DNA from: a virus | Taxonomy: Duplodnaviria > Caudoviricetes | Direction: 5' to 3' (one strand) | Length of the DNA stretch: 64,000 nt | IMG/VR virus record: IMGVR_UViG_3300033120_000925 | Location: 8,723-72,722 of that record | Shown: piece after piece, positions 491 to 64,000 of the stretch | Layout: every line of letters starts with the position of its first letter | Numbering within the stretch: the first letter of the stretch is position 1 | Notes under the pieces: model-generated | The model's database searches: none | Told to the model about the DNA's origin: nothing | What the model saw: the letters and a program-made list of their open reading frames with translations, nothing else | Translations under genes and position numbers: made by a program

Positions 491-520
491 AAAAGCCTCT
501 ACTTATTAGCAGAGGCTTTT
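491..520. terminator. bidirectional intrinsic terminator
   Basis: AAAAGCCTCT-N10-AGAGGCTTTT between convergent genes. Confidence 0.85.
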
Positions 521-523
521 CTT

Positions 524-3500
524 TTATGGGTTAATTTTCATTCTTCCAAAATTAGGAACGCCTGGAACTCCTTTTTTAGAACTTTTAGACTTTTCTTCAA
601 AATCAGGGTCTTTTCTTAATCCAAAACTTTCTACTATTCCTCCTTGGAAAAATCCGTTTAGGAAGCCACTCGTGTAGTAGTTAGTTTTGTCGTATTCTCC
701 TTTTACTAATCCTTTGTAAATTTGTTTTACATCTTTCGCTGCTCTTACAGGGCCGGGGAATTCAAATCGTTTTCCTAACATCGCTCCTAAATCTCCTGAA
801 GCCTCGCTTATTTTTACTTCATCATTTTCCGTATATCCTTTGGCATATTTTTCAAGTATTTTATAAGTATTTTTTTGATCGTCGAAGAAGTCTGCTTTTA
901 CATTAACCATTTTTGCAATATATCTTCCAAAATCTTTATCTTTAATAGCAAGTATCAAAACTACTGCGTCAGGAACAGTTTTGTCAAAATACTTTTTAGC
1001 CCACTTATTTTCTTTAAGCCATTTTTCTATTTCGTCGTCGGCTCCAGAAGCAGACATTCCCCCGATAATAGAAGCGGTTATTATTGCTCCCATAAGCATT
1101 GTGGCTGATGTACTTCTTAAATTCATACCTCGATATAATGACTCCTCCATATTTTTAATTCCTTCGTCGGTAGTTACATCAAGTTTTCCTGCCATTTTTA
1201 ATTGCATCACGTCATCTCGCAATGAAACTAAACTTAATGGATTGGCGCTTTTTTGAAGTCCTTTTACAAACCAGTTTGTTCCTCCTCCTACGAATGTAGA
1301 AATGAAATTTTTCCATATTATTTGATTAACAACTGCTCCTGCGGCATTACTCCATTTTTTTTCTTTTATGGCATCAGCAACTTTCTTTTCAATTTGAGCG
1401 CCTTTAGCTGATATTTGGTCAGTAACCCAGTTATTTGATACGTGGCCAATATCTTTTCCTGCTGATTTATATGCTGCGGCGTAAATTGCTTTTAGTTCGG
1501 TTTCCGTCAATTGTCCTCCGCTTACCAATGATTCTTTTACGATGTCGGCGGCGAGAGATTTTATAGATGATTCAGAATCGTTAAGCAGTTTTCTCCCTGC
1601 ATCTTCATTAACTTTTTCAATTAATGCTTTTGCTTTTACCAATGCTTCTTTCATAGAATCTCCGGTAATAGCTTTTGCCACATAGTCTAAAGCATCAGAA
1701 TTGCTCATTCCTTTTGCTTCTAAAACCTTGATTGTGGCACGAACCATTTTAGCTTCTGTAATCAATATTTTATTGTAACTATCCGCACCTTCCAATACGG
1801 GTTTAGCCATATAGGTAGAGATAATTGCGTGATACACTCTATTGGTAGTGGCATTATTGAAATAATCCTCAACAGCACTATGGTTTAGTAAAAGCGAAGA
1901 TGTATCTCCATAAGATTCCGCCGCTTCCAATGTAATACCTCTTAGTTTTGCTCTTGCGTTTATTTTAGATTGTGCTTTTATCGCTTTATTTGATGTTTTT
2001 TTACCACTTGCGATATTTGCCATTGCATCCATCATATTATTAGCGGCTCTTGCCATCATTCCGGAAGATATATTTTCAGCTAAATTCCCAAGATTTACCA
2101 ATTTAAAACGAGTGGATAAATTGGTAATTTCGCTTAATGCAACGGCAAGTTTAAATTTCCAATCTGCTTGTGAAAAAGCAAGCGTGGCTACTAATCGAGA
2201 TTGTCTTCTGCTTAAAGAGTTTACGGCACTTTTGATTTCAGTGTCCGAAAGTCCTGAATCCATTAAAACAGCATAACCTCTAGCTATCTCTTTCATTTCA
2301 TCGAACGCCATTTGGTCTAATCCATTAAATCCTAAAACACTATTGATGATTTTTTCGTAGCTATCTTTGTTTTTTTCGAATAATCCATAATTGTAAAGTT
2401 CAGCGAGTTTCTTGGCCGCCGATTTAGTATTTACAGGTTTTCTATCTGCATTTCTGTTTTGAAGTTCATTTAATCCTTTTTCGATAACGTCCGAAGTCAA
2501 TCTTACATACTCTCTCTCAAGAGCTTTTTTCATTTCGTTTATCTCGGCTTTGGAATATTTGCTTCCTTTGAGAGATTCCTCTACATTTTTACGGATATTA
2601 GAAATTGTTCCCGCTTCACCCGCAAGTTTTTTCCAATCTAATACGGTACGTTTTTCTTTTGTTTTTACATTTCTACCATCCGCATCTTTCACCAATTTAC
2701 CCGAAGCATCTCTTTCATTTTTAGTAACGGTTATTTCCCTGCTAAAACCTTTTTCTATCAACGCTTTTTTTACAATTTCCTTTACAGAATCTTGCTTTTC
2801 TTGGGCTTCTGTTTTTGGCTTGGCTTTTTTAATGGAATGTTCTTTTAAAATATCTGAAACATCTGTTTTGTTTATTCCTGGAAAGACTTCTTTGATGTCG
2901 TTGTAAACCTCGTTTACTATTTGTCGTGTGGTCATTCCACCAAGTTCTGCCAATAGTTTTGACAGTTTTATGATATGAGGAGCCACAGCCTGTAATTGGG
3001 CTGCATAAGGAATGGAAGACATCGCTGCGTTTCCTTTTGCTACTTTTAGCAGGTCTTTTCTCATTTGGGCCAAAACATTACTAATGTCTTTTTTTACGGC
3101 CTCTTTGTTTCTTTTTACAGTTGGTTCCTCAATAACAAAATCTTCATCACTTTCCTGATTTTCAGATTCATTATTTATGTCGTCAGGGCTAACTTGTATT
3201 AGTTTTTGAATTTTACCTTTGTCGTTTTTTTGCTTAGTAGTAAGTATTGCATTAGTAAATTCTTCTTCTGAAAATCCGTTTTTAGCCAATTCTCTAAATC
3301 TTTCAATTCTAAAACGACCTGCCCCCATAGCTCTTGCACTATTAGCTAAAAACTCTTGGGATTTGGCACGAACTAAATCTTGCAATTTCTGAACTCCTAC
3401 ATTTTTAGGAAATTCTTTTACTCTTGCATCCATTTCGTTTTCAAGCAATACATAAGCCACAGCTTTCTTTTCAGGGCTTAAATTAGCTTGTTCTATGAAT

Positions 3501-53342: not shown

Positions 53343-53576
53343 ATGAAAGAAAAGATATTTATAGAGCTAACAGATGACCAAATAAATAAAGTCTTTGAAT
53401 CTCGACAACCAAAAATAATTGAGCCAATAACTTTTTCAATAACGGATGCGGCTAAAAAATTAGGTATAAGCAAAGCGCATATTTACATACTAATAAACTC
53501 CGGCGAGATTAAAAAAATTATAATTGGAAAATCGCCAAGAATTCACATAGACGAAATAAATAAATTTTTGTTATGA
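53343..53576 (+). CDS. excisionase-like HTH protein
   Basis: FSITDAAKKLGISKAHIYILINSGEIKKIIIGKSPRIHIDEINKFL; divergent from int. Confidence 0.8.
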   Translation: MKEKIFIELTDDQINKVFESRQPKIIEPITFSITDAAKKLGISKAHIYILINSGEIKKIIIGKSPRIHIDEINKFLL

Positions 53577-54298
53577 AAGATCAAGTAGAGGTTTGGAAGC
53601 CTATTCCTGGATATGAAGGAAAGTATGAGTTTAGTAATTTACATAATGTAAAATCATTAAGTAGATTTATTAAAAGAGGAAATGGTGGTTTTTGGTCAAA
53701 AGAAAAGATATTAAAGATTTTTTTAGAGGAAGGATATTATAAAGTAGGGTTATGCTTAAATGGAAAATCTAAAAGTTTTGGAATACATCAATTAGTTGCT
53801 ATGGAGTTTTTAAATCATACTCCCTGTGGGTTTGAATTAGTTGTAGAACATAAAAATCAAATCAGGACTGATAATAGAATTGAAAATTTAGAGATAATTA
53901 CTCAAAGGAAAAACGCAAATAAAAAGCATTTAAAAAGCAGTAGTAAATACACTGGGGTTTCGTGGCATAAAAAGAATAATAAATGGAGGTCGGCAATAGT
54001 TATCGAAGGAAAAGTAAAACATTTAGGATATTTTGAGATAGAGGAAGAAGCATCAGAATACTATGAAAACGCATTGAAAAATCATTTATCAGGATTACCT
54101 ATTAAAACTAAAAATGCAAATTTTAGTTCTAAATACGAAGGAGTTTCTTTAAGTAAAGCAGCTAAAAAATATATGGCAAGAATAACGATAAAAGGAAAAC
54201 AAATTTATTTAGGTAGTTTCAATACAGAATTAGAAGCTCATCTAAAATATCAAAATCAATATCGGGAAATCGCCGAGGATATGCAGGGCAGAAATTGA
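53573..54298 (+). CDS. NUMOD4-HNH-AP2 homing endonuclease
   Basis: EVWKPIPGYEGKYEFSN (NUMOD4), HQLVA...VEHKNQIRTDNRIENLE (HNH), two SSKYxGVS...LGxF AP2 domains. Confidence 0.9.
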   Translation: MKDQVEVWKPIPGYEGKYEFSNLHNVKSLSRFIKRGNGGFWSKEKILKIFLEEGYYKVGLCLNGKSKSFGIHQLVAMEFLNHTPCGFELVVEHKNQIRTDNRIENLEIITQRKNANKKHLKSSSKYTGVSWHKKNNKWRSAIVIEGKVKHLGYFEIEEEASEYYENALKNHLSGLPIKTKNANFSSKYEGVSLSKAAKKYMARITIKGKQIYLGSFNTELEAHLKYQNQYREIAEDMQGRN

Positions 54299-54332
54299 CA
54301 AGTTTTTACCCGCTCCTGAATCGTAGTATTCC

Positions 54333-54463
54333 TGATAACGTTTTGCGTGTATAAGAAGTGGCGGATTAGAACTCCAAAACTTTCAGAAAGCACGAAACTG
54401 AAATAGAAAAACAGAACTTAAATTAATAACAAAACTAACGCTGAAATGTAGCTGTTGTTACAG
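54333..54463 (+). repeat. attC-like site A (chimeric, arms do not pair)
   Basis: TGATAAC...GTTACAG; left arm resembles site D, right arm resembles site C. Confidence 0.6.
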
Positions 54464-54487
54464 GACGGCACTAAAATCAAATAAAAA

Positions 54488-54757
54488 ATGGGAACATTAA
54501 GAAACTTAAAAGGAACTTCTGTAGAAGAAATTGAATGTGAATTTATCACAAAACCATCTGAAATAAAAGATGTTTTAAAAAACGGAAAAGCCTGTACTGC
54601 TGCTGACAGCAATGGTGCGATTAATATATGGAAAGATGATAACGGATTAATTCGTTGTGAATCTATGGCGTATTATCGCTCTCTTGATACAAAAGAATTT
54701 GAAAATATTAAGGACGTAGAAAATTGGGCTAAAAAATGGCTTCGCAAGATAAAGTAA
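54488..54757 (+). CDS. cassette ORF, hypothetical
   Basis: Flanked by GTTACAGGAC / GTCCTGTAAC. Confidence 0.7.
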   Translation: MGTLRNLKGTSVEEIECEFITKPSEIKDVLKNGKACTAADSNGAINIWKDDNGLIRCESMAYYRSLDTKEFENIKDVENWAKKWLRKIK

Positions 54758-54773
54758 TGTTGCTCTCGCTGTC

Positions 54774-55007
54774 CTGTAACGGGCTCCGGCTTGTTCGTCG
54801 TTCCGAGAGGAGCTTGCTCCGAAGCGGAATGCGTACAAGCCGGTGATGGGGAAAAGGGGCGTTCCGCTCACCAAGGCGAAGCCGGAGCCCGATGGAGTGC
54901 AGCCCGGAGGGATGTACTCCATCGGTCTAGCTTGTAGCTGTATGCCAAGATAGAACGTGAATAGAAAGAAAATAGTCATAGCATATAGCTACAAGCGTAT
55001 GTTAGGG
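54774..55007 (+). repeat. attC-like site B containing a GC-rich multi-hairpin module
   Basis: CTGTAAC...GTTAGGG, 234 bp; nested stems; 76 nt (54777-54852) identical to 63925-64000. Confidence 0.7.
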
Positions 55008-55100
55008 TTCGTTGCGGATGATTAAAGAAGGTTTCATCGAGTACAAAAACGTCTCTCACGATTGAAAGATAAGGCGTTCCTTCATTTTTAAATTTATATT

Positions 55101-55445
55101 ATGAAATTAACAGATAAACAATTTAGGGTTTTAGAGTTTTTGATAAATAAAGGAAGAAATTATAATACTTCTGTTCACGGAACTATGCTGACTAAAATTA
55201 TCTATGATGAAGAAACTATTAAAAAATATTCTTTTGCTAGAACTGCTAAAATGGTAATTGACACAATGACTTTTTCTTATCTAGGAAAAATGTGTCGTGC
55301 AGATTTAATTGGCTCTGAATATCAAACTATTGGCGACTTGTCAAGTAGAACTAAAGGCTATTCATATTATTGTGGACATTATTGCACAAAAAAAGGCAAG
55401 GAAGCGTATGATGAATTTCTTTTGAAAACGAAAATAGAGCAATGA
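55101..55445 (+). CDS. cassette ORF, hypothetical (winged-helix-like)
   Basis: Stop abuts GAGCCCTAAC; LGKMCRADLI...CTKKGKEAY. Confidence 0.65.
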   Translation: MKLTDKQFRVLEFLINKGRNYNTSVHGTMLTKIIYDEETIKKYSFARTAKMVIDTMTFSYLGKMCRADLIGSEYQTIGDLSSRTKGYSYYCGHYCTKKGKEAYDEFLLKTKIEQ

Positions 55446-55446
55446 G

Positions 55447-55526
55447 CCCTAACGTTCTGCGGCTACAGTTTCGGCAGCCTATGTACAAAGTTGCTTTCGG
55501 CTGCTGAAATGTAGCCGTTGTTATGC
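55447..55526 (+). repeat. attC-like site C (short class, 80 bp)
   Basis: CCCTAAC; CGGCTACAGTTTCGGCAGCC / GGCTGCTGAAATGTAGCCG with one extra G; GTTATGC. Confidence 0.9.
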
Positions 55527-55569
55527 CTAGTACGGCAAAATAAAATATTAACAATAAATTAAAAGTAAA

Positions 55570-55815
55570 ATGATTAAAGTATTAAGACAAGAATCTTCTT
55601 TTTATAAAGAATTAGAAGCGTTTAACGCCTATATGGCAACAAGAAATATAGAAGTGCAAATGACACCCCACAACGGTATCATTTACAAAATTCAAGATAA
55701 ATATTATAAATATCTTCAAGATGGCGAATATCCAGAATCATTACCTCCTTTTTTAGATGGAAAATATGTTGAATGTGATTATTTTGGAAATACTGATTAC
55801 TACCAAGAATCGTAG
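55570..55815 (+). CDS. cassette ORF, hypothetical
   Basis: Stop TAG inside the AATCGTAGTATT end motif. Confidence 0.7.
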   Translation: MIKVLRQESSFYKELEAFNAYMATRNIEVQMTPHNGIIYKIQDKYYKYLQDGEYPESLPPFLDGKYVECDYFGNTDYYQES

Positions 55816-55821
55816 TATTAG

Positions 55822-55951
55822 GCATAACGTTTGCGTGTATGGTTAGTGCGGAAAAATAAGCCGAATCGCTCCATTCAAGACCGAGTAATCCAAGTACAGA
55901 CAGAACTTTAAAATAAACCTAATACCGCATTAACTATACAAGCTGTTAGCA
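55822..55951 (+). repeat. attC-like site D (130 bp)
   Basis: GCATAAC; TGTATGGTTAGTGCGG / CCGCATTAACTATACA; GTTAGCA. Confidence 0.85.
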
Positions 55952-55963
55952 GCAGTTAAATTT

Positions 55964-56170
55964 ATGAAAACAATTATCATCGAACAGGCGATTTATAAAG
56001 TAACAGATAGAGAATTTAATGTTATAAAAGCAATGCAACAAAAAATAAAAAATGAAGCTACAGATTATAAAGCGTGTTTTAAAGCAGAAGATGAACTTAA
56101 CGAGTATTTAGATGTAGCGAAAACTCTTTATAAATTCGTAGGAACGGTTGATTTTCATTGTCAGCGTTAA
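55964..56170 (+). CDS. cassette ORF, hypothetical
   Basis: Between paired cassette ends. Confidence 0.7.
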   Translation: MKTIIIEQAIYKVTDREFNVIKAMQQKIKNEATDYKACFKAEDELNEYLDVAKTLYKFVGTVDFHCQR

Positions 56171-56174
56171 TTGC

Positions 56175-56306
56175 TGCTAACGTTCTGGCACTACAACGGG
56201 TTTGGGGTTAAAAATGCGTAATCTTTCGGTTATGTCTAATAATTACAAGCACAAAACAATAATTCAGAAAGTCCAATGCCCAAATCCGTTGTAGTGGCTG
56301 TTATGC
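56175..56306 (+). repeat. attC-like site E (132 bp)
   Basis: TGCTAAC; CACTACAACGGGTTTGGG / CCCAAATCCGTTGTAGTG; GTTATGC. Confidence 0.9.
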
Positions 56307-56348
56307 GTTCGGCTTTTTAAAACTAAATATTAATCAAAAAATAATAAA

Positions 56349-56666
56349 ATGAATACGGAAAAACAAAAAGAATTTTTAGAGTTAAAGACTAAACTACTAA
56401 ATGAAATTGAATATCGAGAAGGTGTTTTAAGACAATTAAATTTCGATTCAAATAGAGAAAAAGGATTTGTTTCTACTTTTTTAAAAGGATTTTTAAAGCA
56501 CAAAAAACAAGCTCCTAATTTATTCTGGAAAGATGGCGAAACTTACGGAAGATATTTAATTGATGCTGATAAAGAATTACATAAAGATATTGCATTAGCT
56601 TTTGAAAAATCAATTGAAAAACTAAAACGTGATTATAACGATTCGGTTCTGGAAGCTGACGCATAA
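56349..56666 (+). CDS. cassette ORF, hypothetical
   Basis: TAA stop lies inside GCATAAC. Confidence 0.7.
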   Translation: MNTEKQKEFLELKTKLLNEIEYREGVLRQLNFDSNREKGFVSTFLKGFLKHKKQAPNLFWKDGETYGRYLIDADKELHKDIALAFEKSIEKLKRDYNDSVLEADA

Positions 56667-56794
56667 CGGCGGAGGCTTTGTGATGTTGCCTTGAAAACAC
56701 ACCTAAAACTTTAAATTAAAAACAAATGAATCAAGAAAAAAACAATGTTTCAATTAATAACCAATCAGGCAATAGCACAAAACCTATGTTACAA
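56661..56794 (+). repeat. attC-like site F (134 bp)
   Basis: GCATAAC; AGGCTTTGTGATGTTGCCT / AGGCAATAGCACAAAACCT; GTTACAA. Confidence 0.8.
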
Positions 56795-57046
56795 GACGTT
56801 ACTCTTGTGAAAACGGATTTTAAACTTACTGGATTAGGGAGAAAAAAATCAATGACTTGCGAGCCATTAAATAACCAAAACATATTCTGGCCCAAAGTTG
56901 GATTAAGCCAAGACAGATTTGATGCGTTATGGGATTATTTTAAAGGAAATAAGCCAATGCAAATGATTGCTGAAATTGAACACGAAGGACTTTATGAAGA
57001 CGGAACCCCTATTAACGGAAATGTTGTAGGTGTACGTGATTTGTAA
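56726..57046 (+). CDS. cassette ORF starting in the site F loop
   Basis: ATG 56726 in the loop; a second ATG overlaps the GTTA core (ATG TTA). Confidence 0.65.
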   Translation: MNQEKNNVSINNQSGNSTKPMLQDVTLVKTDFKLTGLGRKKSMTCEPLNNQNIFWPKVGLSQDRFDALWDYFKGNKPMQMIAEIEHEGLYEDGTPINGNVVGVRDL

Positions 57047-57050
57047 TGTC

Positions 57051-57127
57051 TTGTAACGTTTGTCGCTTGTACTAGGCGGCTATGCGGTTGCGTATATTCT
57101 GCCGCTTAGTACAAACGATTGTTAGGA
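57051..57127 (+). repeat. attC-like site G (short class, 77 bp)
   Basis: TTGTAAC; TCGCTTGTACTAGGCGGC / GCCGCTTAGTACAAACGA; GTTAGGA. Confidence 0.9.
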
Positions 57128-57164
57128 GAATACCACTAAACACTAATTTAAAAACATATTTAAA

Positions 57165-57545
57165 ATGACAAAACAAGAAAAAATTAAAAAAGAATGGGGT
57201 AGTTTTTACACAGATAAAGTAAGCCCTGATGGATGGTTAAATATTCATCCAAAAAATTATTCAAATGATGAATTGTTTGATAGATTAAAATTTAATTCAG
57301 AAAGAGATTCAATTCGTCCTAAAACATTACAAGGAGTAGAACACAATCACGGTTGGACTAAAATTGAAAAAGAATCTGATTTACCTACAATTGGAGAATA
57401 TTATACGATTGCAAGTTTTGATAATTTAATCGTAGAAAGAGAGTTTCCGCACCCTAAATTTTCTTTAGAATTTAATAAAGAATGGTGGTTAAAATATATT
57501 ACCCACTATCAACAAATTATTAAGCCAGAGAAGCCACTATACTAG
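57165..57545 (+). CDS. cassette ORF, phage-type hypothetical
   Basis: GWTKIEKESDLP...ITHYQQI (DUF551-like ends). Confidence 0.7.
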   Translation: MTKQEKIKKEWGSFYTDKVSPDGWLNIHPKNYSNDELFDRLKFNSERDSIRPKTLQGVEHNHGWTKIEKESDLPTIGEYYTIASFDNLIVEREFPHPKFSLEFNKEWWLKYITHYQQIIKPEKPLY

Positions 57546-57553
57546 GCGGTTTC

Positions 57554-57675
57554 TCCTAACGTTACATCGCTTGGCTTAGTGCCGAGTTATGAAAACAATA
57601 ATTTCTAATTAAAAATAAACGTGATGAAAAACGATAAAAACGAAAATAAGGCATTGAGCCAAACGAGTGTTAGCA
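57554..57675 (+). repeat. attC-like site H (122 bp)
   Basis: TCCTAAC; TCGCTTGGCTTAGTGCC / GGCATTGAGCCAAACGA; GTTAGCA. Confidence 0.85.
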
Positions 57676-58046
57676 GTAGTGTTTTTTCTTTTGATGATTT
57701 TGATAAACTTATGAATACTAAAGAAGAAATACAAGAACTAATTAATATGCCTAAAGATGAATTTGTAGAAAAAACTAAAAAACTTCTTAACTACATATCA
57801 GACCAATATTCTAAAGGTTGGAAATCAAAAAGACTAACAGAAGAAGAATATCCTGAAGAAAGTGTTTGCGATAAATGTACAGGATGCGGAACTTTTAAAT
57901 TTAATGGAGAAGACGATGAATGTGTTGCAGACCGAGAAGAGGGCGAATGTTATGTTAGATATTTTGATGCTGAGGAATTTGGATTAGAAATTGAAGCAAC
58001 TATGGATGATGTTTATGAACTTCTTTTTATAGACAATATTGAGTAA
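57621..58046 (+). CDS. cassette ORF starting in the site H loop, Cys-containing
   Basis: Leader KALSQTSVSSS read through the hairpin arm; CDKCTGC motif. Confidence 0.65.
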   Translation: MMKNDKNENKALSQTSVSSSVFSFDDFDKLMNTKEEIQELINMPKDEFVEKTKKLLNYISDQYSKGWKSKRLTEEEYPEESVCDKCTGCGTFKFNGEDDECVADREEGECYVRYFDAEEFGLEIEATMDDVYELLFIDNIE

Positions 58047-58052
58047 CATTAC

Positions 58053-58183
58053 TGCTAACGCTTTGCTACTACAAGCAGTAGCGGACAAATAAAGACTAAT
58101 TCTCGGATAATTATAAATTATCCAAACACAAAACAATAATAACCAAAGCCAGATTAAGCTATTGATTGTAGTAGCTGTTATAT
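58053..58183 (+). repeat. attC-like site I (131 bp)
   Basis: TGCTAAC; GCTACTACAAGCAGTAGC / GCTATTGATTGTAGTAGC; GTTATAT. Confidence 0.85.
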
Positions 58184-58220
58184 TCTCGGCTTTTTTTTAC
58201 TAACAAATTAAATTAAAAAA

Positions 58221-58400
58221 ATGGAAATAGAAGATATTGAAGTAATAGTAATGATTGTTCAATTCAAAGATGGTTCTGCGCATCAAGTTTTGACATCAAA
58301 AGAAAATAAAAAAATAGCCTTGCAAATAATCGCAAGTGCTGATGGAAAATTAACGATTGATAAAGAACTCGCTCCTGTTGTATTCGAGTATGCAGAGTAG
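58221..58400 (+). CDS. cassette ORF (59 aa)
   Basis: MEIEDIEVIVMIVQFKDGSAHQVL...FEYAE, below the track cutoff. Confidence 0.65.
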   Translation: MEIEDIEVIVMIVQFKDGSAHQVLTSKENKKIALQIIASADGKLTIDKELAPVVFEYAE

Positions 58401-58429
58401 ATTTTGACGCAAAGTTGCTAGAAGCTGGA

Positions 58430-58436
58430 ATATAAC
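58430..58436 (+). repeat. half site J (left core only, hairpin missing)
   Basis: GAATATAAC complements the cassette start GTTATATTC at 58177; no hairpin or GTTA follows. Confidence 0.6.
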
Positions 58437-58468
58437 TACTTGCTTTGCGCATAAAATGTATTACAAAG

Positions 58469-58648
58469 ATGAAACAATACACAAAAACAAAGGTAATTCG
58501 CATTACAGAAACACAACACCAAACACTGGTAAAAATGCAATCTTACAATGTTGATGTAGCCGATTTTATCCGAAACGCAATATCTGAAAAAATAAAAAGG
58601 GAGTATAAGGACTTGATGCCGAAAGTTAAAAATGATTGCCCTTTCTAA
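58469..58648 (+). CDS. ribbon-helix-helix-like protein
   Basis: KTKVIRITETQHQTL...VDVADFIRNAISEKI. Confidence 0.6.
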   Translation: MKQYTKTKVIRITETQHQTLVKMQSYNVDVADFIRNAISEKIKREYKDLMPKVKNDCPF

Positions 58649-58701
58649 AACTCGGCAACTTAAACCATGCTAAAATACCAATTATTAAAACTAAAAATAA
58701 A

Positions 58702-58950
58702 ATGGAAAAAGAAATTAAAGAATTGATTAGAAACAATGGGAATGATTTAATGCGTTGGACTGAAAAAAGAGATAATTTAAGAAATAAAATTAAATTTTGC
58801 TCGGATCATAAATTCGAAGAGGAAGTAAGGATGTCACTTTCAAAATTAGAATCTATGGAAGGTGTTATTTATGATTATGAGCAAATGATTAAAGACTTGA
58901 AAATAATCTTAAAATCTTACCAAAATGATATTGCTGCGACTGAATCGTAG
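58702..58950 (+). CDS. cassette ORF, coiled coil
   Basis: Stop TAG inside the AATCGTAGTATT end motif. Confidence 0.65.
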   Translation: MEKEIKELIRNNGNDLMRWTEKRDNLRNKIKFCSDHKFEEEVRMSLSKLESMEGVIYDYEQMIKDLKIILKSYQNDIAATES

Positions 58951-58956
58951 TATTAG

Positions 58957-59033
58957 GCATAACGTTAAAACTATACTGCGGTTGCCTATGCGGTTTAGTA
59001 GATTCGGCAACTGCTGTATAGTGATTGTTACCA
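58957..59033 (+). repeat. attC-like site K (short class, 77 bp)
   Basis: GCATAAC; CTATACTGCGGTTGCC / GGCAACTGCTGTATAG; GTTACCA. Confidence 0.85.
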
Positions 59034-59076
59034 GAAGTACGGCAATTATAATTTAACAATTTAAAACAATAATAAA

Positions 59077-59586
59077 ATGAAAAACATACACATATTACCA
59101 ACAAAAAACCAAAGTAGGTTGTATTTTGATGTAGTAACAAAAAAATTACTATTACAAGAAAGATTAAGTCTTAATGCGACTTGTTTTCCAATTGAAAAAA
59201 GAAACATCTACATCACTAATGATGAAGAAATTAAAGATGAAGATTGGACATTAAAATTTCCTTTCCAAAAGGAAATTTTCAAAAATATTGAAGTAAGTAT
59301 TAATGAATATGTAAAAAGAGCAAAACTACATACATACCCATATAATTGGTGTCAAAAAATTATCCTTACTACTGACCCTGATTTAATCAAAGATGGTGTA
59401 CAAGCTATTGATGATGAGTTCTTAGAGTGGTTTGTTAAGAATCCAAGTTGTGAGGAAGTTGAAGTTAAGTGGGTAAAAACACCTGATGGTATATTTTATA
59501 CAAATGATGTTCCTTATGGATGTTATAAAATCATCATTCCAAAAGAAATTGATACTTTAGAATTAGGACAAATTAAAATCTACTAA
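59077..59586 (+). CDS. cassette ORF, Bacteroidota-phage-type hypothetical
   Basis: First of three genes in one cassette. Confidence 0.75.
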   Translation: MKNIHILPTKNQSRLYFDVVTKKLLLQERLSLNATCFPIEKRNIYITNDEEIKDEDWTLKFPFQKEIFKNIEVSINEYVKRAKLHTYPYNWCQKIILTTDPDLIKDGVQAIDDEFLEWFVKNPSCEEVEVKWVKTPDGIFYTNDVPYGCYKIIIPKEIDTLELGQIKIY

Positions 59587-59588
59587 AT

Positions 59589-59915
59589 ATGAAAGAAAAA
59601 ACAATTAACATTCCAATTTACTTTGGAAAATTAAAAATCATTACCACAGATTCGTGGAGCAAAGTAAATCTACTTTATAACACAAAAATTGATTCAAAAC
59701 TTTATGATGCGGTTGTTTTTGAAATAAAAAACAATGATGAATACATAGTTGCAATCAAAAAAGTAGAATGGTCAATAATAGCTCACGAAGTTGTGCATAT
59801 TGTAAATGCAATATTCTTAAAATGCGGTGTTGAACTTGACAGACAAAACGACGAACCGCAAGCCTATTTAACAGGATGGATTATAAATGAAATAGATAAA
59901 TTTTTAAATAAATAA
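59589..59915 (+). CDS. HExxH zincin-like phage protein
   Basis: IAHEVVH...DEPQAYL. Confidence 0.6.
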   Translation: MKEKTINIPIYFGKLKIITTDSWSKVNLLYNTKIDSKLYDAVVFEIKNNDEYIVAIKKVEWSIIAHEVVHIVNAIFLKCGVELDRQNDEPQAYLTGWIINEIDKFLNK

Positions 59916-59917
59916 TT

Positions 59918-60436
59918 ATGACACCAAGAAGAAATAAATTATGGTTAAATACACCCGCAGAATTAGCGATTTTCAATGCTATTCAAGAAGTTGAAACAGT
60001 AGGTGCTGATGTTAGATTGACAGAAATTACAAATATGCTTGTAAAAGCAAAAGACTTATTATCTGATTATATTGACAATACTAAAGATTTGCAAGGAACT
60101 GAATTAGCTAAAAAAACTTTGTTTAAAATTACAGATAAATTACCCGACGGGGTTCTTTGGGGAAAAGCAAGAGAATATTCAAAACAATTTACCTCTTTCG
60201 AAAAACCAGTTCAAAGTGAAATTGCAATGAGTGAAGCACAAGACCATTATTATAGAGGAATGATTGATTTAAGAGATATGATTGAACAACAGAATAATGA
60301 AGCCGTAGAAATGCTTGACGGTTTAGTTTCTGATGTAGGGAATCTACTTTGTGATGTTGCTGATTTAGATTTTGAATGGCAACAAGCAGGATATTATGAA
60401 ACTGCTAAAAAATGGTTATTAGAAAACAAATCGTAG
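59918..60436 (+). CDS. cassette ORF, hypothetical
   Basis: Stop TAG inside the AATCGTAGTATT end motif. Confidence 0.7.
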   Translation: MTPRRNKLWLNTPAELAIFNAIQEVETVGADVRLTEITNMLVKAKDLLSDYIDNTKDLQGTELAKKTLFKITDKLPDGVLWGKAREYSKQFTSFEKPVQSEIAMSEAQDHYYRGMIDLRDMIEQQNNEAVEMLDGLVSDVGNLLCDVADLDFEWQQAGYYETAKKWLLENKS

Positions 60437-60442
60437 TATTTC

Positions 60443-60573
60443 TGGTAACGTTGAAGCATTGTTGCAGTTGTGTATTAGGACTGCCAAATTATCGATTTAA
60501 AACTAACCAACCAAGTACAAAAACAATTATTAATCAAGCCAATTGCCACAATTGCTACAATGCATTGTTATAT
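60443..60573 (+). repeat. attC-like site L (131 bp)
   Basis: TGGTAAC; GCATTGTTGCAGTTGTG / CACAATTGCTACAATGC; GTTATAT. Confidence 0.85.
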
Positions 60574-60597
60574 GCTGGCTTTTTAACACTAAAAATT

Positions 60598-60864
60598 ATG
60601 AAAAACTTTAAACAATTCAGAAGAAGTCAAATTGCAGAAATGCGAGAAGTAACAGAAAATGATATTAATGTATTTAAGAATCACGGATTTATACATATAT
60701 CAGAATATCCATTTGGTTTTAACATATCTATTTCTGATGCAGACAAAAACAATGGAAGTCCTAAAATTGGAGATATGATTGCAAGGAATCCAAAAGACTA
60801 TTCAGACCAATGGTTAGTAGCTGAACAATATTTCAAAGATAATTTTGAGAAGTTAGTTGAGTAA
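60598..60864 (+). CDS. cassette ORF, phage-type hypothetical
   Basis: MKNFKQFRRSQIAEMR...GDMIARNPKDYSDQWLVAEQYFKDNF. Confidence 0.75.
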   Translation: MKNFKQFRRSQIAEMREVTENDINVFKNHGFIHISEYPFGFNISISDADKNNGSPKIGDMIARNPKDYSDQWLVAEQYFKDNFEKLVE

Positions 60865-60870
60865 GCTATC

Positions 60871-60993
60871 ATATAACGTTTCTCGGCTTTGTTTAGTGCC
60901 GACTTAGAAAAACTAAACTTTCAACTTAAATAATATATCTTATGAAAACAGAAAATAACGAAAACCAGGCATTGAACAAAACCGATGTTAGCA
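60871..60993 (+). repeat. attC-like site M (123 bp)
   Basis: ATATAAC; TCGGCTTTGTTTAGTGCC / GGCATTGAACAAAACCGA; GTTAGCA. Confidence 0.85.
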
Positions 60994-61178
60994 GCAGTGC
61001 GAGGTATATAATTATTGACGAAAGCCTTTCAGGACATTGCTGTTTTGAATTTACAATAATTGACACAGCAGCAGGTAAGGAAGATTATGGAGATTACTGG
61101 AAACGCTCAATGTGTGAAACATTTTATAGAGCAGAAGCAGAAATTATATGTGACGCTCTCAATAAGCATTGTTGCTAA
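60942..61178 (+). CDS. cassette ORF starting in the site M loop
   Basis: Leader QALNKTDVSSS; TAA stop inside the next TGCTAAC. Confidence 0.7.
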   Translation: MKTENNENQALNKTDVSSSARYIIIDESLSGHCCFEFTIIDTAAGKEDYGDYWKRSMCETFYRAEAEIICDALNKHCC

Positions 61179-61251
61179 CGTTCCGCAGCTACACGATGCC
61201 AGCCTATGCGGTTGCTATATTTCGGCTGGTATTGTGTAACTGCTGTTAGTA
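61173..61251 (+). repeat. attC-like site N (short class, 79 bp)
   Basis: TGCTAAC; GCAGCTACACGATGCCAGCC / GGCTGGTATTGTGTAACTGC; GTTAGTA. Confidence 0.9.
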
Positions 61252-61297
61252 GCTGTTTTTTTATTTTACATTTATTTTAAAAATATTTGTAATTTTA

Positions 61298-61328
61298 TTT
61301 GGTAGTTACAAAATTAGTCGTATATTTG
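61298..61328 (+). promoter_or_regulatory. host-type promoter inside a cassette
   Basis: TTTG 61298-61301, N19, TATATTTG 61321-61328. Confidence 0.75.
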
Positions 61329-61358
61329 TAAAAGAAATAACAACTAAAACAAATCAAA

Positions 61359-61556
61359 ATGAAAACATCTACTTATACTTACGAATTTGCAAATGGAACT
61401 TTTACTATCACAAAAGGAATAAAAACTAAATTTGATTGGTTTGTTTCTGTAAAGTTAAATGATGGTTTTATATCATTGAATCAAAATATTTTCTTAACAA
61501 AAAAAGAAGCGAAAAAAACAACTGAAAACTTACTAAACAAATACAAATTACTATGA
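61359..61556 (+). CDS. cassette ORF, hypothetical
   Basis: First gene after the internal promoter. Confidence 0.65.
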   Translation: MKTSTYTYEFANGTFTITKGIKTKFDWFVSVKLNDGFISLNQNIFLTKKEAKKTTENLLNKYKLL

Positions 61557-61906
61557 ATGAAAATTTTTATAAACAAGCTGTAAATAACTTTGAATTTAGA
61601 GCGAAAAGAATAAATAACGACATTGTTGTTTATGGACTACTTTCTTTTTATAATAATGAATTAGTTATAATTACAGAAGACAATAATGCATATCATATAA
61701 AACCTGATACGATTCAAGAATATACACGATTGAAAGATAAAAACAAAAATAAAGTTTTTGTTGGAGATAAAATAAAGCATTTTGAAGGACGTGAATTTGA
61801 AGTTGTTTTTTCAGATATAAAAGGAATTTTATTAAGTTCAATAAATGACAATGGAGAATATGCTAACGGTTATCCTTATTGGATTGATGATTGCGAAATA
61901 ATTTAG
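61553..61906 (+). CDS. YopX-family phage protein
   Basis: FEFRAK...VYG...IKPDTIQEYTRLKDKNKNKVFVGDKI. Confidence 0.75.
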   Translation: MNENFYKQAVNNFEFRAKRINNDIVVYGLLSFYNNELVIITEDNNAYHIKPDTIQEYTRLKDKNKNKVFVGDKIKHFEGREFEVVFSDIKGILLSSINDNGEYANGYPYWIDDCEII

Positions 61907-61911
61907 TAAAT

Positions 61912-62079
61912 ATGGAACGAAAAAATATTATAGTTTTCATTCAAAACGACCGAATAGAAACTTATGGAAATCTAAAAAAGTGTTGTGAGTTTGAAAATCT
62001 AAAATACCACACTTTAGCACGTTTAAAATTCCCAATTCGGATAAACGATGTAGTTATACACAAAACGTTGTTTAAATAG
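61912..62079 (+). CDS. small putative DNA-binding protein
   Basis: ETYGNLKKCCEFENLKYHTLARLKFP. Confidence 0.55.
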   Translation: MERKNIIVFIQNDRIETYGNLKKCCEFENLKYHTLARLKFPIRINDVVIHKTLFK

Positions 62080-62080
62080 C

Positions 62081-62213
62081 TACTGACGTATGGTGCTATA
62101 TTTCAGTAGCGGAAACACAAAACAATGCTTCGGTTGATGACCGAAAATAACAAGTACAAACAAATTATTGAATTTAACCCGATAACCGCTATTGAATATA
62201 GCAGTTGTTATAA
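62081..62213 (+). repeat. attC-like site O (133 bp, TGAC variant core)
   Basis: TACTGAC; GCTATATTTCAGTAGCGG / CCGCTATTGAATATAGC; GTTATAA. Confidence 0.8.
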
Positions 62214-62225
62214 GTAGCTTTTATT

Positions 62226-62507
62226 ATGATAACAGAATTTAATTTTACAAAAGAATGGCAAGAAGACAAACACAATTGGGTCGTTTTTTATGTTGAGAAT
62301 TTCCCAATAGATTTAAAAGTAGGTGATGAAATATGGATAAGTGATTTTAAACATCTATTTAAAAAAGGCGAATATTATTGTCCAGAAAATGAAATTTCAA
62401 ATGAATTTTTAGAAGAGTTTGATATTCCAGAAGGAAAAGTAACACATTTAAGGTATGGTTTACAAGACGGAAAAGTAGTTAAGATTTTAGAACTTTTGGC
62501 TACATAG
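62226..62507 (+). CDS. cassette ORF, hypothetical
   Basis: Between paired cassette ends. Confidence 0.7.
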   Translation: MITEFNFTKEWQEDKHNWVVFYVENFPIDLKVGDEIWISDFKHLFKKGEYYCPENEISNEFLEEFDIPEGKVTHLRYGLQDGKVVKILELLAT

Positions 62508-62521
62508 TTTGGTAAAGTTAC

Positions 62522-62653
62522 TTATAACGTTATCTCGCTTGGCGAGGTTGCTGACTTCGGAAAAATAAAACTTCAACTTAAAAATAAATATGATGCGAAA
62601 CGTGAACGTGAATAAACAACAAAATCAGCAATCTTGCCAAACGAGTGTTAGCG
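62522..62653 (+). repeat. attC-like site P (132 bp)
   Basis: TTATAAC; TCGCTTGGCGAGGTTGCTGA / TCAGCAATCTTGCCAAACGA; GTTAGCG. Confidence 0.9.
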
Positions 62654-62790
62654 GTTCGGTTACGGATGAGAACAATCGTAATTATGCTAAAAAAATATTG
62701 ATAAAATATATTCAAAGCGAAAGATTGCAATATAAACAAAAACAAGGAGATTATTCAATTGACGAATTATTAACAGAATTAGAAAAATAA
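62590..62790 (+). CDS. cassette ORF starting in the site P loop
   Basis: Leader QQSCQTSVSGS. Confidence 0.6.
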   Translation: MMRNVNVNKQQNQQSCQTSVSGSVTDENNRNYAKKILIKYIQSERLQYKQKQGDYSIDELLTELEK

Positions 62791-62792
62791 GT

Positions 62793-63362
62793 ATGGGAAG
62801 CATTAAAGGACAAAAACACAATCCTGAATTAGAAGGAAAATATGCTCACATAAACCCGAATGATGTGGTTTTTACGCCTGATTGGTTGGCGAAACAAATA
62901 GTATCAATGTTTGATATTAAAGGAAAAGTATTAGAACCGTGTAAAGGTGAGGGTGCGTTTTTAAATCACTTACCGAAAGATACAGAATGGTGTGAAATTG
63001 CAGAAGGTATAAACTATTATGATTATAATGAAAAAGTAGATTGGATTGTAACCAACCCACCTTATTCGGATTATAACAGGTTTCTTGAACATTCATTTGC
63101 ATTGGCTGATAATATTGTTTTATTAGTTCCTGTTGCGAAAATGTTTAAAAGTATGGGAACAATGAGCGATATATTTAATTATGGCGGATTTGTTGAAATA
63201 CACACATTGCCAAGTAGTAAAGCAGGATTTCCTTTTGGATTTCCAAGTGCGGTTTACTACTTAAAAAGGGGTTACAAAGGAGAAACTAAAATAAAAATGT
63301 TAGACGGAATTTCTTTTGAAAAGAAGAAGAAAAAAGCAAAAGTTTCTACTTTATTCGAGTAG
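62793..63362 (+). CDS. DNA N6-adenine (amino) methyltransferase, orphan
   Basis: DVVFTPDWLA, VLEPCKGEGAF (motif I), IVTNPPY (motif IV). Confidence 0.9.
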   Translation: MGSIKGQKHNPELEGKYAHINPNDVVFTPDWLAKQIVSMFDIKGKVLEPCKGEGAFLNHLPKDTEWCEIAEGINYYDYNEKVDWIVTNPPYSDYNRFLEHSFALADNIVLLVPVAKMFKSMGTMSDIFNYGGFVEIHTLPSSKAGFPFGFPSAVYYLKRGYKGETKIKMLDGISFEKKKKKAKVSTLFE

Positions 63363-63375
63363 TTGTTTAACTGAC

Positions 63376-63507
63376 TGCTAACGCCCTGTCGCTTGGCGAT
63401 GTGGCAAAAAAGTACACCCGAATTTTCGGATTATTACAAGTGCGTAAGGCACAAAACCAACTATAAATTAAACCTAAACTTGCCATATTGCCAAACGGCT
63501 GTTATGT
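63376..63507 (+). repeat. attC-like site Q (132 bp)
   Basis: TGCTAAC; GTCGCTTGGCGATGTGGCAA / TTGCCATATTGCCAAACGGC; GTTATGT. Confidence 0.9.
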
Positions 63508-63533
63508 GAGGTTGCGGGTAACTAAAACAAAGC

Positions 63534-63914
63534 GTGATGGAAAATAATTTATGCTCAAAATTCATAAAAAACTCATTAAGTGAAAACTATTGTGATAATT
63601 GCGGTAGAGAAGAATGGCATCATCCAAAGGAAAATGATTATAAAATGATTTTCTATAATGAGGGAATAAAAAGAGCTTCACAACATAATTTTAATCAAGC
63701 CGAAGCAGGTTATAATGCAAAATGGTTTAAAAGAGGAGCTATATTTGGGCGTATAGAAACACTAAAAGAAAATGAAGAATTATTAAACGCCCTATATCAA
63801 CTTGTTTCGTTAAAGAAATGGAAAGAAGAATTTGGAAAAGATGAATGGTATTTAGAAAAACAACCATTAGCTTGGAAAAATGCTGAAAAAGTTCTTATGG
63901 AATTTGAAATTTAG
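63534..63914 (+). CDS. cassette ORF with N-terminal Cys/His motif
   Basis: CSKF...CDNCGREEWHH. Confidence 0.7.
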   Translation: MMENNLCSKFIKNSLSENYCDNCGREEWHHPKENDYKMIFYNEGIKRASQHNFNQAEAGYNAKWFKRGAIFGRIETLKENEELLNALYQLVSLKKWKEEFGKDEWYLEKQPLAWKNAEKVLMEFEI

Positions 63915-63921
63915 CAATCTC

Positions 63922-64000
63922 ACATAACGGGCTCCGGCTTGTTCGTCGTTCCGAGAGGAGCTTGCTCCGAAGCGGAATGCGTACAAGCCGGTGATGGGGA
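63922..64000 (+). repeat. attC-like site R (GC-rich type, truncated by the window edge)
   Basis: ACATAAC then 72 nt identical to 54781-54852. Confidence 0.8.

Follow-up and report, generated by a model that had tools for sequence, protein, structure and literature searches.

A phage gene-cassette array whose hairpin sites favour the coding strand, in apparent mirror image of integron attC sites

We find that the window, a 64,000-nucleotide stretch of DNA from a flavobacterial phage, carries at 54336-63928 a row of 16 TAAC...GTTA hairpin sites, together with a solo TAAC and a terminal TAAC (Table 1); the genome that hosts them is one phage contig of 72,722 bp. We read this region, with a probability of about 0.7, as an integron-like gene-cassette array whose sites are the mirror image of classical attC, such that the coding strand is the one folded and exchanged. 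Mirror-image sites of this kind suggest that phages have a system for swapping genes that is largely undescribed. A preliminary description had started the array at 54774; we move its start to 54336 and set its end at the terminal TAAC. Site polarity is that of the ORFs in every array examined, and four ORFs of the window begin within the loop of the hairpin upstream of them. The first site, S0, is a weak folder (-5.0 versus -4.1 kcal/mol for the arms of the plus and the minus strand, DNA parameters). The S0b hairpin is present without its insert in L044 at position 118; the inserted module folds as RNA at -84.4 kcal/mol (z -6.8), and an Rfam search with it matched no family. Beyond the module copy that follows the terminal TAAC comes TACTTACTAAT, near the start of the contig, a sequence similar to the terminal junctions of relatives.

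Table 1 Features of the array and its left neighbourhood (positions in the window)
Feature	Position	Strand	Evidence and remarks
Tyrosine recombinase, 414 aa	51958..53202	-	PF00589, 1.9e-10; points away from array
HTH_17 protein, 77 aa, excisionase-like partner of integrase	53343..53576	+	PF12728, 2.5e-9
NUMOD4-HNH-AP2 endonuclease gene	53573..54298	+	Pfam matches
Left-flank motif of family, AATCGTAGTATT-CCTGA-TAAC	54312-54339		Sequence; after NUMOD4-HNH-AP2 gene
S0, first site	54336..54460	+	Left arm and right arm of different hairpin types; barely folds
S0b	54777..55004	+	Sequence; GC-rich insert between TAAC and hairpin
GC-rich structured module, 145 nt	54781..54925	+	Inserted exactly at TAAC^G
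S1, short-type, 74 nt	55450..55523	+	Bulged base in 5' arm
S2, long-type, 124 nt	55825..55948	+	Site pattern and folding
S3, long-type, 126 nt	56178..56303	+	Site pattern and folding
Cassette body	56304..56663	+	Matches a cassette body of another phage contig at 95% identity; hairpins on both sides differ there
S4	56664..56791	+	Loop contains start codon of next ORF (56726)
S5, short-type, 71 nt	57054..57124	+	Site pattern and folding
S6	57557..57672	+	ORF start within loop
S7, long-type, 125 nt	58056..58180	+	Site pattern and folding
Solo TAAC, degenerate junction	58432..58435	+	Left flank pairs with S7 right flank (14 Watson-Crick, 2 G.T); no hairpin after it
S8, short-type, 71 nt	58960..59030	+	Near-identical in three other phage contigs, flanks different each time
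S9, long-type, 125 nt	60446..60570	+	Site pattern and folding
S10	60874..60990	+	ORF start within loop
S11, short-type, 73 nt	61176..61248	+	Site pattern and folding
Bacteroidota-type promoter match, TTTG-N19-TATATTTG	61298..61328	+	Only one inside array
S11b	62084..62210	+	TGAC replaces TAAC; with the G, + strand retains a G.T pair
S12	62525..62650	+	ORF start within loop
S13, long-type, 126 nt	63379..63504	+	Site pattern and folding
Terminal TAAC of array	63925..63928	+	No hairpin after it; left flank pairs with S13 right flank (14 Watson-Crick, 1 G.T)
Second GC-rich module copy	63929..64000	+	76-nt repeat of 54777 onward; continues at contig start

We compared the two strands by joining the arms of each site through a GAAA loop and folding both versions, a check that the preliminary description had named. 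The arms of the plus (coding) strand were the more stable in 16/16 window sites; the energies sum to -408.8 versus -336.4 kcal/mol (RNA parameters) and -217.3 versus -187.3 kcal/mol (DNA parameters). Folding of whole sites with DNA parameters gave the plus strand the lower minimum free energy in 14 of 16 cases, 2 being ties; with RNA parameters it did so in 10, and 1 was a tie. The excess of G.T pairs on the coding strand, first seen in a hand count of the inner stems (22 versus 7), recurred in our arm alignment, which weights G.T and A.C equally and gave 19 G.T versus 8 A.C. Across the site family, taken from 17 phage contigs and thinned to 112 sites by removing those more than 85% alike, the inner stems hold 165 G.T versus 59 A.C (p 8.5e-13), and 77 sites are G.T-rich versus 7 that are A.C-rich. 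The bias is family-wide and is the product neither of chance nor of shared descent alone.

The same 112 sites have a lopsided internal loop, as had been proposed from the window. The left spacer has a median of 5 nt (exactly 5 in 68 sites) and the right spacer a median of 1 nt, the left being the longer in 108 sites. TAAC is present in 105 and GTTA in 103 of them, with a G after TAAC in 105 and a T before GTTA in 101, and the conserved core reads TAACG/TGTTA. Seven window sites (S4, S5, S6 and S10-S13) share a C.A mismatch at one equivalent stem position, in agreement with the first reading, and in the family a C.A occupies stem position 5 in 29/103 sites; G.T pairs peak at stem position 14 (48/103). 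Read along the plus strand, a site begins with 5'-flank-TAACG and some 4 bulged nt; the stem that follows measures 18 bp, is interrupted by a fixed C.A at position 5 and by G.T near positions 13-14, and returns after the loop to end in TGTTA-flank-3'. It is plausible that the C.A and the bulge act as specificity determinants for a distinct recombinase.

Pairing extends to the ends of the cassettes. In 16/17 window cassettes the bases that follow GTTA pair with those preceding the next TAAC, amounting to 225 Watson-Crick pairs, 25 G.T and 3 A.C; with 90 G.T versus 16 A.C in the 95 cassette-end stems of the family (p 1e-13), the earlier claim that mismatches here are nearly all G.T on the plus strand stands for the window and the family alike. 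The paired length averages 14 bp for the ends of 95 cassettes versus 8.9 bp for the flanks around a single hairpin. These ends lie 300-1500 nt apart yet are complementary, with compensatory changes. Excised junctions rebuilt under a model of left crossover averaged -24.2 kcal/mol on the plus strand versus -19.6 kcal/mol on the minus strand, the plus strand being better in 14/14. After excision, the two ends of a cassette would lengthen the hairpin stem by about 14 bp.

Such a fold could instead act mainly in RNA, where G.U-paired hairpins and pairing across ORFs would shape a polycistronic early transcript by processing it, stabilising it or presenting translation starts, mobility being secondary or unrelated. 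The fold always lies on the transcribed sense strand, its advantage is bigger with RNA than with DNA parameters, the G.T pairs suit an RNA fold equally well, and the four start codons located in hairpin loops have A-rich leaders. The array's 9.7 kb contain a single match to the Bacteroidota promoter, making long transcripts likely; sigma-70-like matches are no more frequent there than in shuffled sequence. However, the conserved C.A weakens an RNA helix, no Rfam family was matched, and three features would go unexplained: the complementarity of distant cassette ends with its compensatory changes, near-identical blocks that break precisely at TAAC, and the location of a recombinase gene, in dozens of phages, behind a TAAC that has no hairpin. 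We regard a primarily RNA-level function as improbable, and the coding-strand DNA fold may have an additional role in RNA.

Natural variants place the breaks at the left core. Between mumin6-1 and mumin6-3, a 506-nt indel bordered by TAACGTT repeats removes exactly one hairpin and its downstream ORF. Seven Baltic Flavobacterium phages share reshuffled blocks that are 98-100% identical and have both ends at a left TAAC. In the Cellulophaga phages phi13:2 and phi19:3, a common cassette, 99% identical, extends from (T)AAC to the next TAACGG, and the boundary of a Cellulophaga array with the backbone is TAAC; the breaks of some Cellulophaga blocks fall away from sites, within conserved gene leaders. 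Since the left arms of different hairpins are alike over 10-20 nt, the crossover can be placed no finer than from TAAC to about +20.

The linkage of hairpins and genes, which the preliminary description had singled out as a check, gave a concordant picture. Among 112 arrays we found 12 informative junctions, mostly from one Baltic phage group: the downstream hairpin was kept with the ORF in 0/7 and the upstream hairpin in 3/5. This linkage is not absolute. In two cassettes, one of them the cassette body of Table 1, both neighbouring hairpins have been swapped, so either the GTTA side is sometimes exchanged too or hairpins are replaced by another route. These breakpoint and linkage tests uphold the coding-strand reading and reject the classical arrangement. 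The proposal that the coding strand is the substrate, with a crossover at the left TAA/C and each hairpin moving with the gene downstream, is thus supported at the level of sequence by the indel, the left-TAAC block ends, the phi13:2/phi19:3 cassette and the junction counts, as well as by the hairpin-less TAAC beside the recombinase described below.

Ordinary attC sites, with the non-coding (bottom) strand recombined, a crossover at the 3' G/TT and each ORF travelling with its downstream hairpin, would share several traits with those found here: TAAC...GTTA fits the RYYYAAC/GTTRRRY cores, the cassette ends pair as they do in integrons, and in some stems the 5' arm of the plus strand has a bulged base, which on the minus strand would fall in the 3' arm, its classical place. 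The comparative data contradict this arrangement through the absence of downstream linkage in all seven junctions, the indel and block boundaries at the left TAAC, and the poorer fold of the minus strand in every one of the 16 sites. In addition, the genome lacks an integron integrase, and IntI1 did not recombine P12002L_attC1, a tested family member (PMC9892861). We consider bottom-strand recombination highly improbable.

The breakpoints might also arise without any site-specific recombinase, if folded hairpins juxtaposed TAACG(TT) microhomologies and cassettes were lost, gained or reordered by replication template-switching or by a phage single-strand annealing protein. The 7-nt direct repeat TAACGTT around the 506-nt indel, the likeness of left arms and the Cellulophaga breaks in gene leaders would suit this route; furthermore, the present phage encodes a Rad52-like annealing protein, its Cellulophaga relatives encode RecT, and shuffling also occurs in virulent phages without an annotated recombinase. 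However, right arms, which pair with the left, are as conserved, yet breaks cluster on the left; the core is the AAC/GTT core of integrons; and a specific recombinase family with a conserved attI-like junction accompanies the arrays. Recombinase-free shuffling therefore seems unlikely to us.

Under the coding-strand reading, the folded plus strand would undergo exchange at its 5' TAA/C(G), in an intermediate that is presumably single-stranded DNA. Chemistry and position would be those of the classical bottom strand, except that the genes are here written on the folded strand; the mobile unit would consequently comprise a hairpin, the ORF or ORFs downstream and a left flank, and each hairpin would move with the gene after it, in reverse of bacterial integrons.

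A tyrosine recombinase would perform the exchange. The 414-aa integrase, the only PF00589 match in the genome, is probably a lysogeny integrase. It shares 40% identity with its counterpart in Cellulophaga phage phi13:2, its NCBIfam Xer matches are weak (best XerD, 47 bits versus a cut-off of 330), and the same search returned no integron-integrase match. In relatives, a 266-aa Xer-like recombinase directly follows the hairpin-less terminal TAAC at a junction reading flank-TAAC|TAYTATATRT, which is what a left crossover predicts. Arrays with this recombinase occur in phages G001 and G005 and at 80 IMG/VR loci, and the recombinases of relatives score 124-147 bits on TIGR02249 (cut-off 265). Relatives of the 266-aa protein have 1.5 kb or more of upstream sequence at 58 loci, 52 of which show same-strand hairpins in it; at 78 Xer-like loci, two or more downstream hairpins were never seen, and the opposite strand had none at all. 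The present phage's sites belong to the family found at these loci, and the 266-aa recombinase was not found in its genome. Likewise, a PF00589 search found no tyrosine recombinase in the complete array-bearing genomes G004, G012, G007 and G002, nor does the annotation of the complete array-bearing Muminvirus phages and P12002L list one. We infer that the dedicated 266-aa recombinase is the candidate enzyme in many related phages, and that the present phage would be served in trans, by the host or by another phage co-infecting it, or with lower probability by its own 414-aa integrase.

Taken further, for which we see somewhat better than even odds, flavobacterial and other Bacteroidota phages would possess a true mirror-image integron, in which the coding strand is folded and exchanged, the site leads the gene and often gives it a start codon, a short Xer-type recombinase works without the domain thought necessary for hairpin recombination, and enzyme-less arrays are serviced in trans by co-infection or the host. 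If so, virulent phages would gain from this cassette store a shared pool of anti-defence genes.

A complete integron has IntI, with its extra domain, beside the array, and Vibrio-type chromosomal arrays have attC sites of about 125 nt. The phage arrays resemble classical integrons in their AAC/GTT core boxes, imperfect hairpins that have an unpaired spacer and imperfections at fixed places, cassette ends that complement each other in a cassette-specific way, mostly single, promoter-less ORFs and, in relatives, an attI-like terminal site that lacks a hairpin and has a tyrosine recombinase next to it. They differ in that the coding strand would be folded and exchanged, so that the hairpin precedes its gene; in spacers of 5 versus 1 nt and the conserved C.A, where attC has a near-symmetric central spacer and extrahelical bases; in an end complementarity of about 14 rather than about 7 bp; in genes transcribed toward the recombinase; and in being carried by phages. 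The associated 266-aa Xer-like protein scores under the integron-integrase cut-offs and falls short of the integron-integrase models (315-337 positions) by about 50 aa.

Clusters of attC sites without an integron integrase (CALINs) have been described in phages, including Polaribacter phage P12002L, in which two sites only were detected and treated as ordinary attC (Qi et al. 2023; PMC9892861). A single P12002L site, P12002L_attC1, is the only published trace of the present family that we found in the literature; HattCI had assigned its coding strand as the 'bottom' strand, and the family, its polarity, the Xer-like recombinase and the terminal site were not noted (PMC9892861). A CALIN is defined by at least two attC sites within a few kb, as called by IntegronFinder or HattCI models, and by the lack of an integron integrase; the present genome has no integron integrase, and HattCI called one family member in P12002L. 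Like the window, phage P12002L bears an array in which hairpins separate the genes (many encode methyltransferases), and it has no integron integrase.

Promoter-early stem-loops (PeSLs) are mobile regulatory cassettes of T4-type phages; each stem-loop element contains a promoter, and the cassettes rely on homologous recombination. They too are repeated stem-loops between small early genes, in a hyperplastic region whose genes are shuffled between relatives; the present array differs in its single promoter match, breakpoints at a 4-nt core and complementary cassette ends. Another parallel is the attP(+) hairpin of CTX-phi, which is recombined by XerCD: as proposed here, phage DNA folded as a single strand is the substrate of a Xer-type recombinase, and the fold sets strand specificity. 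That hairpin serves to integrate an entire phage genome at one site, whereas the hairpins described here form an array of gene cassettes.

The phage contig is a single piece of 72,722 bp, of which the window covers bases 8723–72722. Its tailed-phage gene set includes a 2337-aa ORF, a chaperonin and a C5 methylase, and its nearest isolates are the Cellulophaga phages phi13:2, phi18:3, phi46:3 and phi19:3 (Pachyviridae). The final 76 nt of the contig duplicate window 54777 onward and, since this repeat runs on at the contig start, the genome is probably circularly permuted, with the array ending at that junction. Small + strand ORFs are set apart in the array by 16 TAAC...GTTA hairpins (71–231 nt), in addition to which there are one solo TAAC and a terminal TAAC. 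The hairpins are much more conserved among phages than the intervening genes; one of them, S8, is near-identical in four otherwise unrelated arrays (the window's and those of loci L006, L010 and L011). The short-type loop CCTATGCGGTTGC is likewise widespread, a sign that the loop may be a target of recognition too.

Positions of the array, its sites and neighbouring features (window coordinates unless a locus is named)
Feature	Position	Strand	Remark
Tyrosine recombinase, 414 aa	51958-53202	-	window's only one; at array's upstream end, pointing away
NUMOD4-HNH endonuclease gene	53573-54298		flanks array
NUMOD4-HNH endonuclease gene	L077 (genome start) 492-1019		flanks array, other end
Hairpin array	54336-63928		
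S0	54336-54460	+	first site of array
GC-rich module	54781-54925		
GC-rich module	63929-64000		continues at contig start
Cassette shared with contig G015	56304-56663		
ORF start in S4 loop	56726	+	
ORF start in S6 loop	57624	+	
Solo TAAC	58432 (within 58380-58450)		
S8	58960-59030	+	71 nt
ORF start in S10 loop	60942	+	
Promoter-bearing cassette	61250-61330		
ORF start in S12 loop	62590	+	

The preliminary description had proposed that these sites fold preferentially as the + (coding) strand, with an excess of G.T over C.A mismatches. When the arms of each site were joined by a GAAA loop and both strands were folded, the + strand was the more stable in 16 of 16 window sites, the summed arm energies being −408.8 kcal/mol for the + and −336.4 kcal/mol for the − strand with RNA parameters, and −217.3 and −187.3 kcal/mol with DNA parameters. 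We then aligned each left arm to the reverse complement of the right arm, giving G.T and A.C mismatches the same score, and obtained 19 G.T versus 8 A.C in the window's inner stems. In 16 of 17 window cassettes, the 13–18 nt past the GTTA are complementary, across the ORF, to the 13–18 nt ahead of the next TAAC; in these cassette-end stems, where G.T had likewise been said to predominate, the same alignment gave 25 G.T versus 3 A.C. Both the folding advantage and the mismatch excess were thereby confirmed, and the hand counts of the preliminary description (about 22 G.T and 7 C.A over 15 inner stems) proved close.

We extended the sampling by running a pattern derived from four window sites, AATCGTAGTATTNNNNNTAACG, against IMG/VR, which matched 26 contigs, about 14 of them with such arrays. 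Larger stretches of 13 array contigs were rescanned with a fold-based detector, and removal of sites more than 85% alike left 112 non-redundant sites, as defined by this heuristic detection. Their inner stems contain 165 G.T versus 59 A.C (p = 8.5e-13), with 77 sites G.T-rich and 7 A.C-rich, and 95 cassette-end stems contain 90 G.T versus 16 A.C (p = 1e-13). True cassette ends pair over a mean of 14.0 nt, versus 8.9 nt for control flanks around one same hairpin, and ORF direction equals site polarity in all arrays examined. The lopsided spacer noted earlier is seen in the medians: the stretch that follows TAAC measures 5 nt, the one leading up to GTTA 1 nt. The base behind TAAC is G in 105 of 112 sites and the base ahead of GTTA is T in 101 of 112, so that TAACG/TGTTA, with a closing G.T pair and ~4 nt bulged out on the 5′ side, is a possible reading of the core. 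The C.A mismatch that had been assigned to one equivalent position occupies stem position 5 in 29 of 103 family sites, and G.T is most frequent at position 14 (48 of 103); the C of the former and the G of the latter are both in the left arm. Outside IMG/VR, a bacterial-genome scan with one short-type hairpin pattern returned ten contigs, nine of them chance matches in MAGs (44–66% G+C) and the tenth a misbinned phage fragment, and is therefore silent on chromosomal arrays. DNA comparison of the window array with GenBank phages gave a sole match of 100 nt at the promoter cassette; a single hairpin alone as query gave none.

Complementary cassette ends are expected whichever side of the hairpin is exchanged, so that only cassettes found in differing contexts can decide which hairpin moves with which gene. 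Cellulophaga phages phi13:2 and phi19:3 share a 99%-identical cassette that runs from (T)|AACG of the upstream hairpin to the following TAACGG|, and in the Cellulophaga phages the boundary between array and conserved backbone falls exactly at TAAC. Other Cellulophaga blocks are broken in conserved gene leaders, indicating that homologous exchange occurs too. In a Baltic Flavobacterium set (mumin6-1, mumin6-3, mymlan6-1, tooticki6-1, filifjonk9-1, hattifnatt9-1 and lillamy9-1), the arrays lie on the − strand and their blocks are 98–100% identical yet present, absent or reordered. Phage mumin6-3 equals mumin6-1 minus 506 nt, the deletion edges being TAACGTT repeats; what is lost is a hairpin whose loop contains a start codon, together with the ORF that belongs to it and the left flank, and the upstream flank is joined via TAAC to the next hairpin. 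Blocks in this set start at |TAACG... and end at ...TAAC(G)| or within the next 10–20 nt, the zone where different left arms are alike. The indel and the block boundaries thus agree with the crossover at the left TAAC that was one of two readings offered in the preliminary description.

The other part of that reading, the claim that each hairpin travels with the gene downstream of it, was examined by a co-occurrence tally drawn from 567 sites in 112 arrays, using cassettes whose bodies match at 88% identity or more across 90% or more of the length and of which one neighbour is unrelated. Where the downstream neighbour had changed, the downstream hairpin had changed too (7/7), and where the upstream neighbour had changed, the upstream hairpin was kept in 3/5; these 12 informative junctions come mostly from one phage group. 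The position of the crossover is resolved no more finely than TAAC through about +20. In the two exceptions, the window cassette that is 95% identical to one in contig G015 and the promoter-bearing cassette in hattifnatt9-1 and tooticki6-1, both flanking hairpins had been replaced. An early, underpowered association test of ORF families with hairpins gave hairpin identities mostly at background level among 19 homologous ORF pairs. The claim holds in that a hairpin normally moves with the gene that follows it, although the GTTA side is at times exchanged too.

Which enzyme might carry out such an exchange was considered next. The window's only tyrosine recombinase, partnered by an HTH_17 excisionase-like gene, looks like a lysogeny integrase; its relatives among GenBank phages are confined to the four Cellulophaga phages (38–40% identical), and an IMG/VR search gave none. 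A PF00589 search of ten IMG/VR array contigs matched in three, each time just downstream of the array and in the same direction, and gave no match in four nearly complete array genomes. In two of the contigs (G001 and G005) the recombinase has 266 aa, matches Xer-type models best and scores 124–147 bits on the integron-integrase model, whose cut-off is 265. We took 80 relatives (45–100% identical) from IMG/VR and counted hairpins as strict TAACG...TGTTA. At least one same-strand hairpin lies upstream in 52 of 58 loci with at least 1.5 kb upstream, and two or more in 46; two or more downstream were found in 0 of 78 loci, and opposite-strand hairpins in none. About 55–70 nt ahead of the recombinase start codon is a conserved hairpin-less junction, flank-TAAC|TAYTATATRT; in one relative (locus L049, recombinase gene at 1629-2429) the terminal junction reads TAAC|TACTATATGT. 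Such a TAAC is predicted by left crossover, whereas right crossover would leave a hairpin there. For the relatives, this is strong genomic evidence of a dedicated recombinase and an attI-like site; the 266-aa gene is absent from the window's phage genome. At the start of one contig (G006, locus L039, reverse strand), the Xer-like gene is 5′-truncated and follows immediately on a TAAC...GTTA junction, which gives the impression of an array encroaching on its own recombinase gene.

One rival reading takes the sites for ordinary attC sites used as the bottom strand, with each ORF moving with its downstream hairpin. This arrangement is contradicted by the comparative data, namely the indel, the block boundaries, the junction tally and the hairpin-less terminal junction. 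Exchange without a recombinase, in which the TAACGTT microhomology would promote template switching or annealing, fits the 506-nt indel and the enzyme-less phages, and the window phage encodes a Rad52-like protein; it leaves unexplained why breakpoints are rare at the equally conserved right arms. The fold may also have a role in RNA, as the start codons in loops and the single internal promoter of the array would suit, but such a role does not account for breaks within a core of 4 nt, for the covariation of cassette ends or for a linked recombinase. Transcription terminators were rejected: a consensus scan picks up sub-hairpins within some sites, but the T runs are not adjacent to the site stems. 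PeSL-like elements, with one promoter per hairpin, were rejected on the one internal promoter. Rfam at gathering thresholds gave no match in the entire window.

Several individual elements of the array deserve description. The ORFs that start in the S4, S6, S10 and S12 loops read in-frame through the right arm and GTTA, yielding alike N-terminal peptides (MK..N.N..QAL..T.VS.S); starts within loops occur likewise in Cellulophaga phage phi13:2 and in mumin6-1. S0, which combines an S2-like left arm with an S1-like right arm, fails to fold; it resembles what a deletion between two unlike hairpins would leave behind or, alternatively, an entry site that stays unfolded. The left flank of the solo TAAC pairs with the right flank of S7, and no hairpin follows; the cassette beyond it has two ORFs, and its end is the common AATCGTAGTATTAGGCA-TAAC flank, to which its start offers no counterpart. 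The promoter-bearing cassette (TTTG-N19-TATATTTG) has counterparts of 88–91% identity in 36 Baltic Flavobacterium phage genomes, where it is one of two with a non-conserved upstream hairpin. HNH genes, which flank the window array, are cassettes in phage P12002L and also lie near Muminvirus arrays. A GC-rich module of ~145 nt in AT-rich surroundings is inserted immediately behind the TAAC of two sites. Its fold as RNA has an energy of −84 kcal/mol (z −6.8); it matches no Rfam family, and an E-value scan around it gave nothing credible. An insert-free version of a module-bearing hairpin occurs in locus L044 at 118 (TAAC|GGTCTAGC), and the module's first 25 nt have exact copies in two other IMG/VR contigs (L074–L076). 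It behaves like a small ORF-less element targeting the crossover point.

Phage attC clusters without an integrase were described by Qi et al. 2023 (PMC9892861), and P12002L_attC1 from that work belongs to the window's hairpin family. We found its sequence, with further sites, on the coding strand of P12002L early genes; judged from the aadA7 control in the same table, the tabulated 'bottom' strand is this coding strand (PMC9892861). IntI1 did not integrate P12002L_attC1 (PMC9892861). Nilsson et al. 2020, on the Baltic phages, mention neither hairpins nor cassettes and tie methyltransferase gene differences to plating efficiency (PMC7077304); our full-text literature search found no account of the hairpin family, its polarity or its recombinase. 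If true, the proposed exchange would explain the fast swapping of methyltransferase and other early genes among virulent flavobacterial phages, the block-shuffled phages being those whose methyltransferase content has been tied to plating efficiency (PMC7077304). Most such arrays escape the integron tools now in use, and a search model can now be built from the site rules: TAACG, a ~4-nt bulge, a stem with C.A at position 5, and TGTTA.

Integrons provide the standard example of a recombinase that recognises a folded single strand, and their strand choice and dedicated IntI domain are regarded as defining. In the arrays described here, the + strand, on which the genes are written, would take the role of the classical bottom strand (5′-...AA|C ... 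GTT...-3′). If true, such a widespread phage system, sharing the integron core but opposite in gene polarity, would be a natural experiment on three questions: what governs the choice of strand, by what route cassettes are expressed when the site lies in the 5′ leader or even the coding sequence, and whether an IntI-specific domain is needed at all when the loop is shaped differently and the enzyme is a short Xer-like one.
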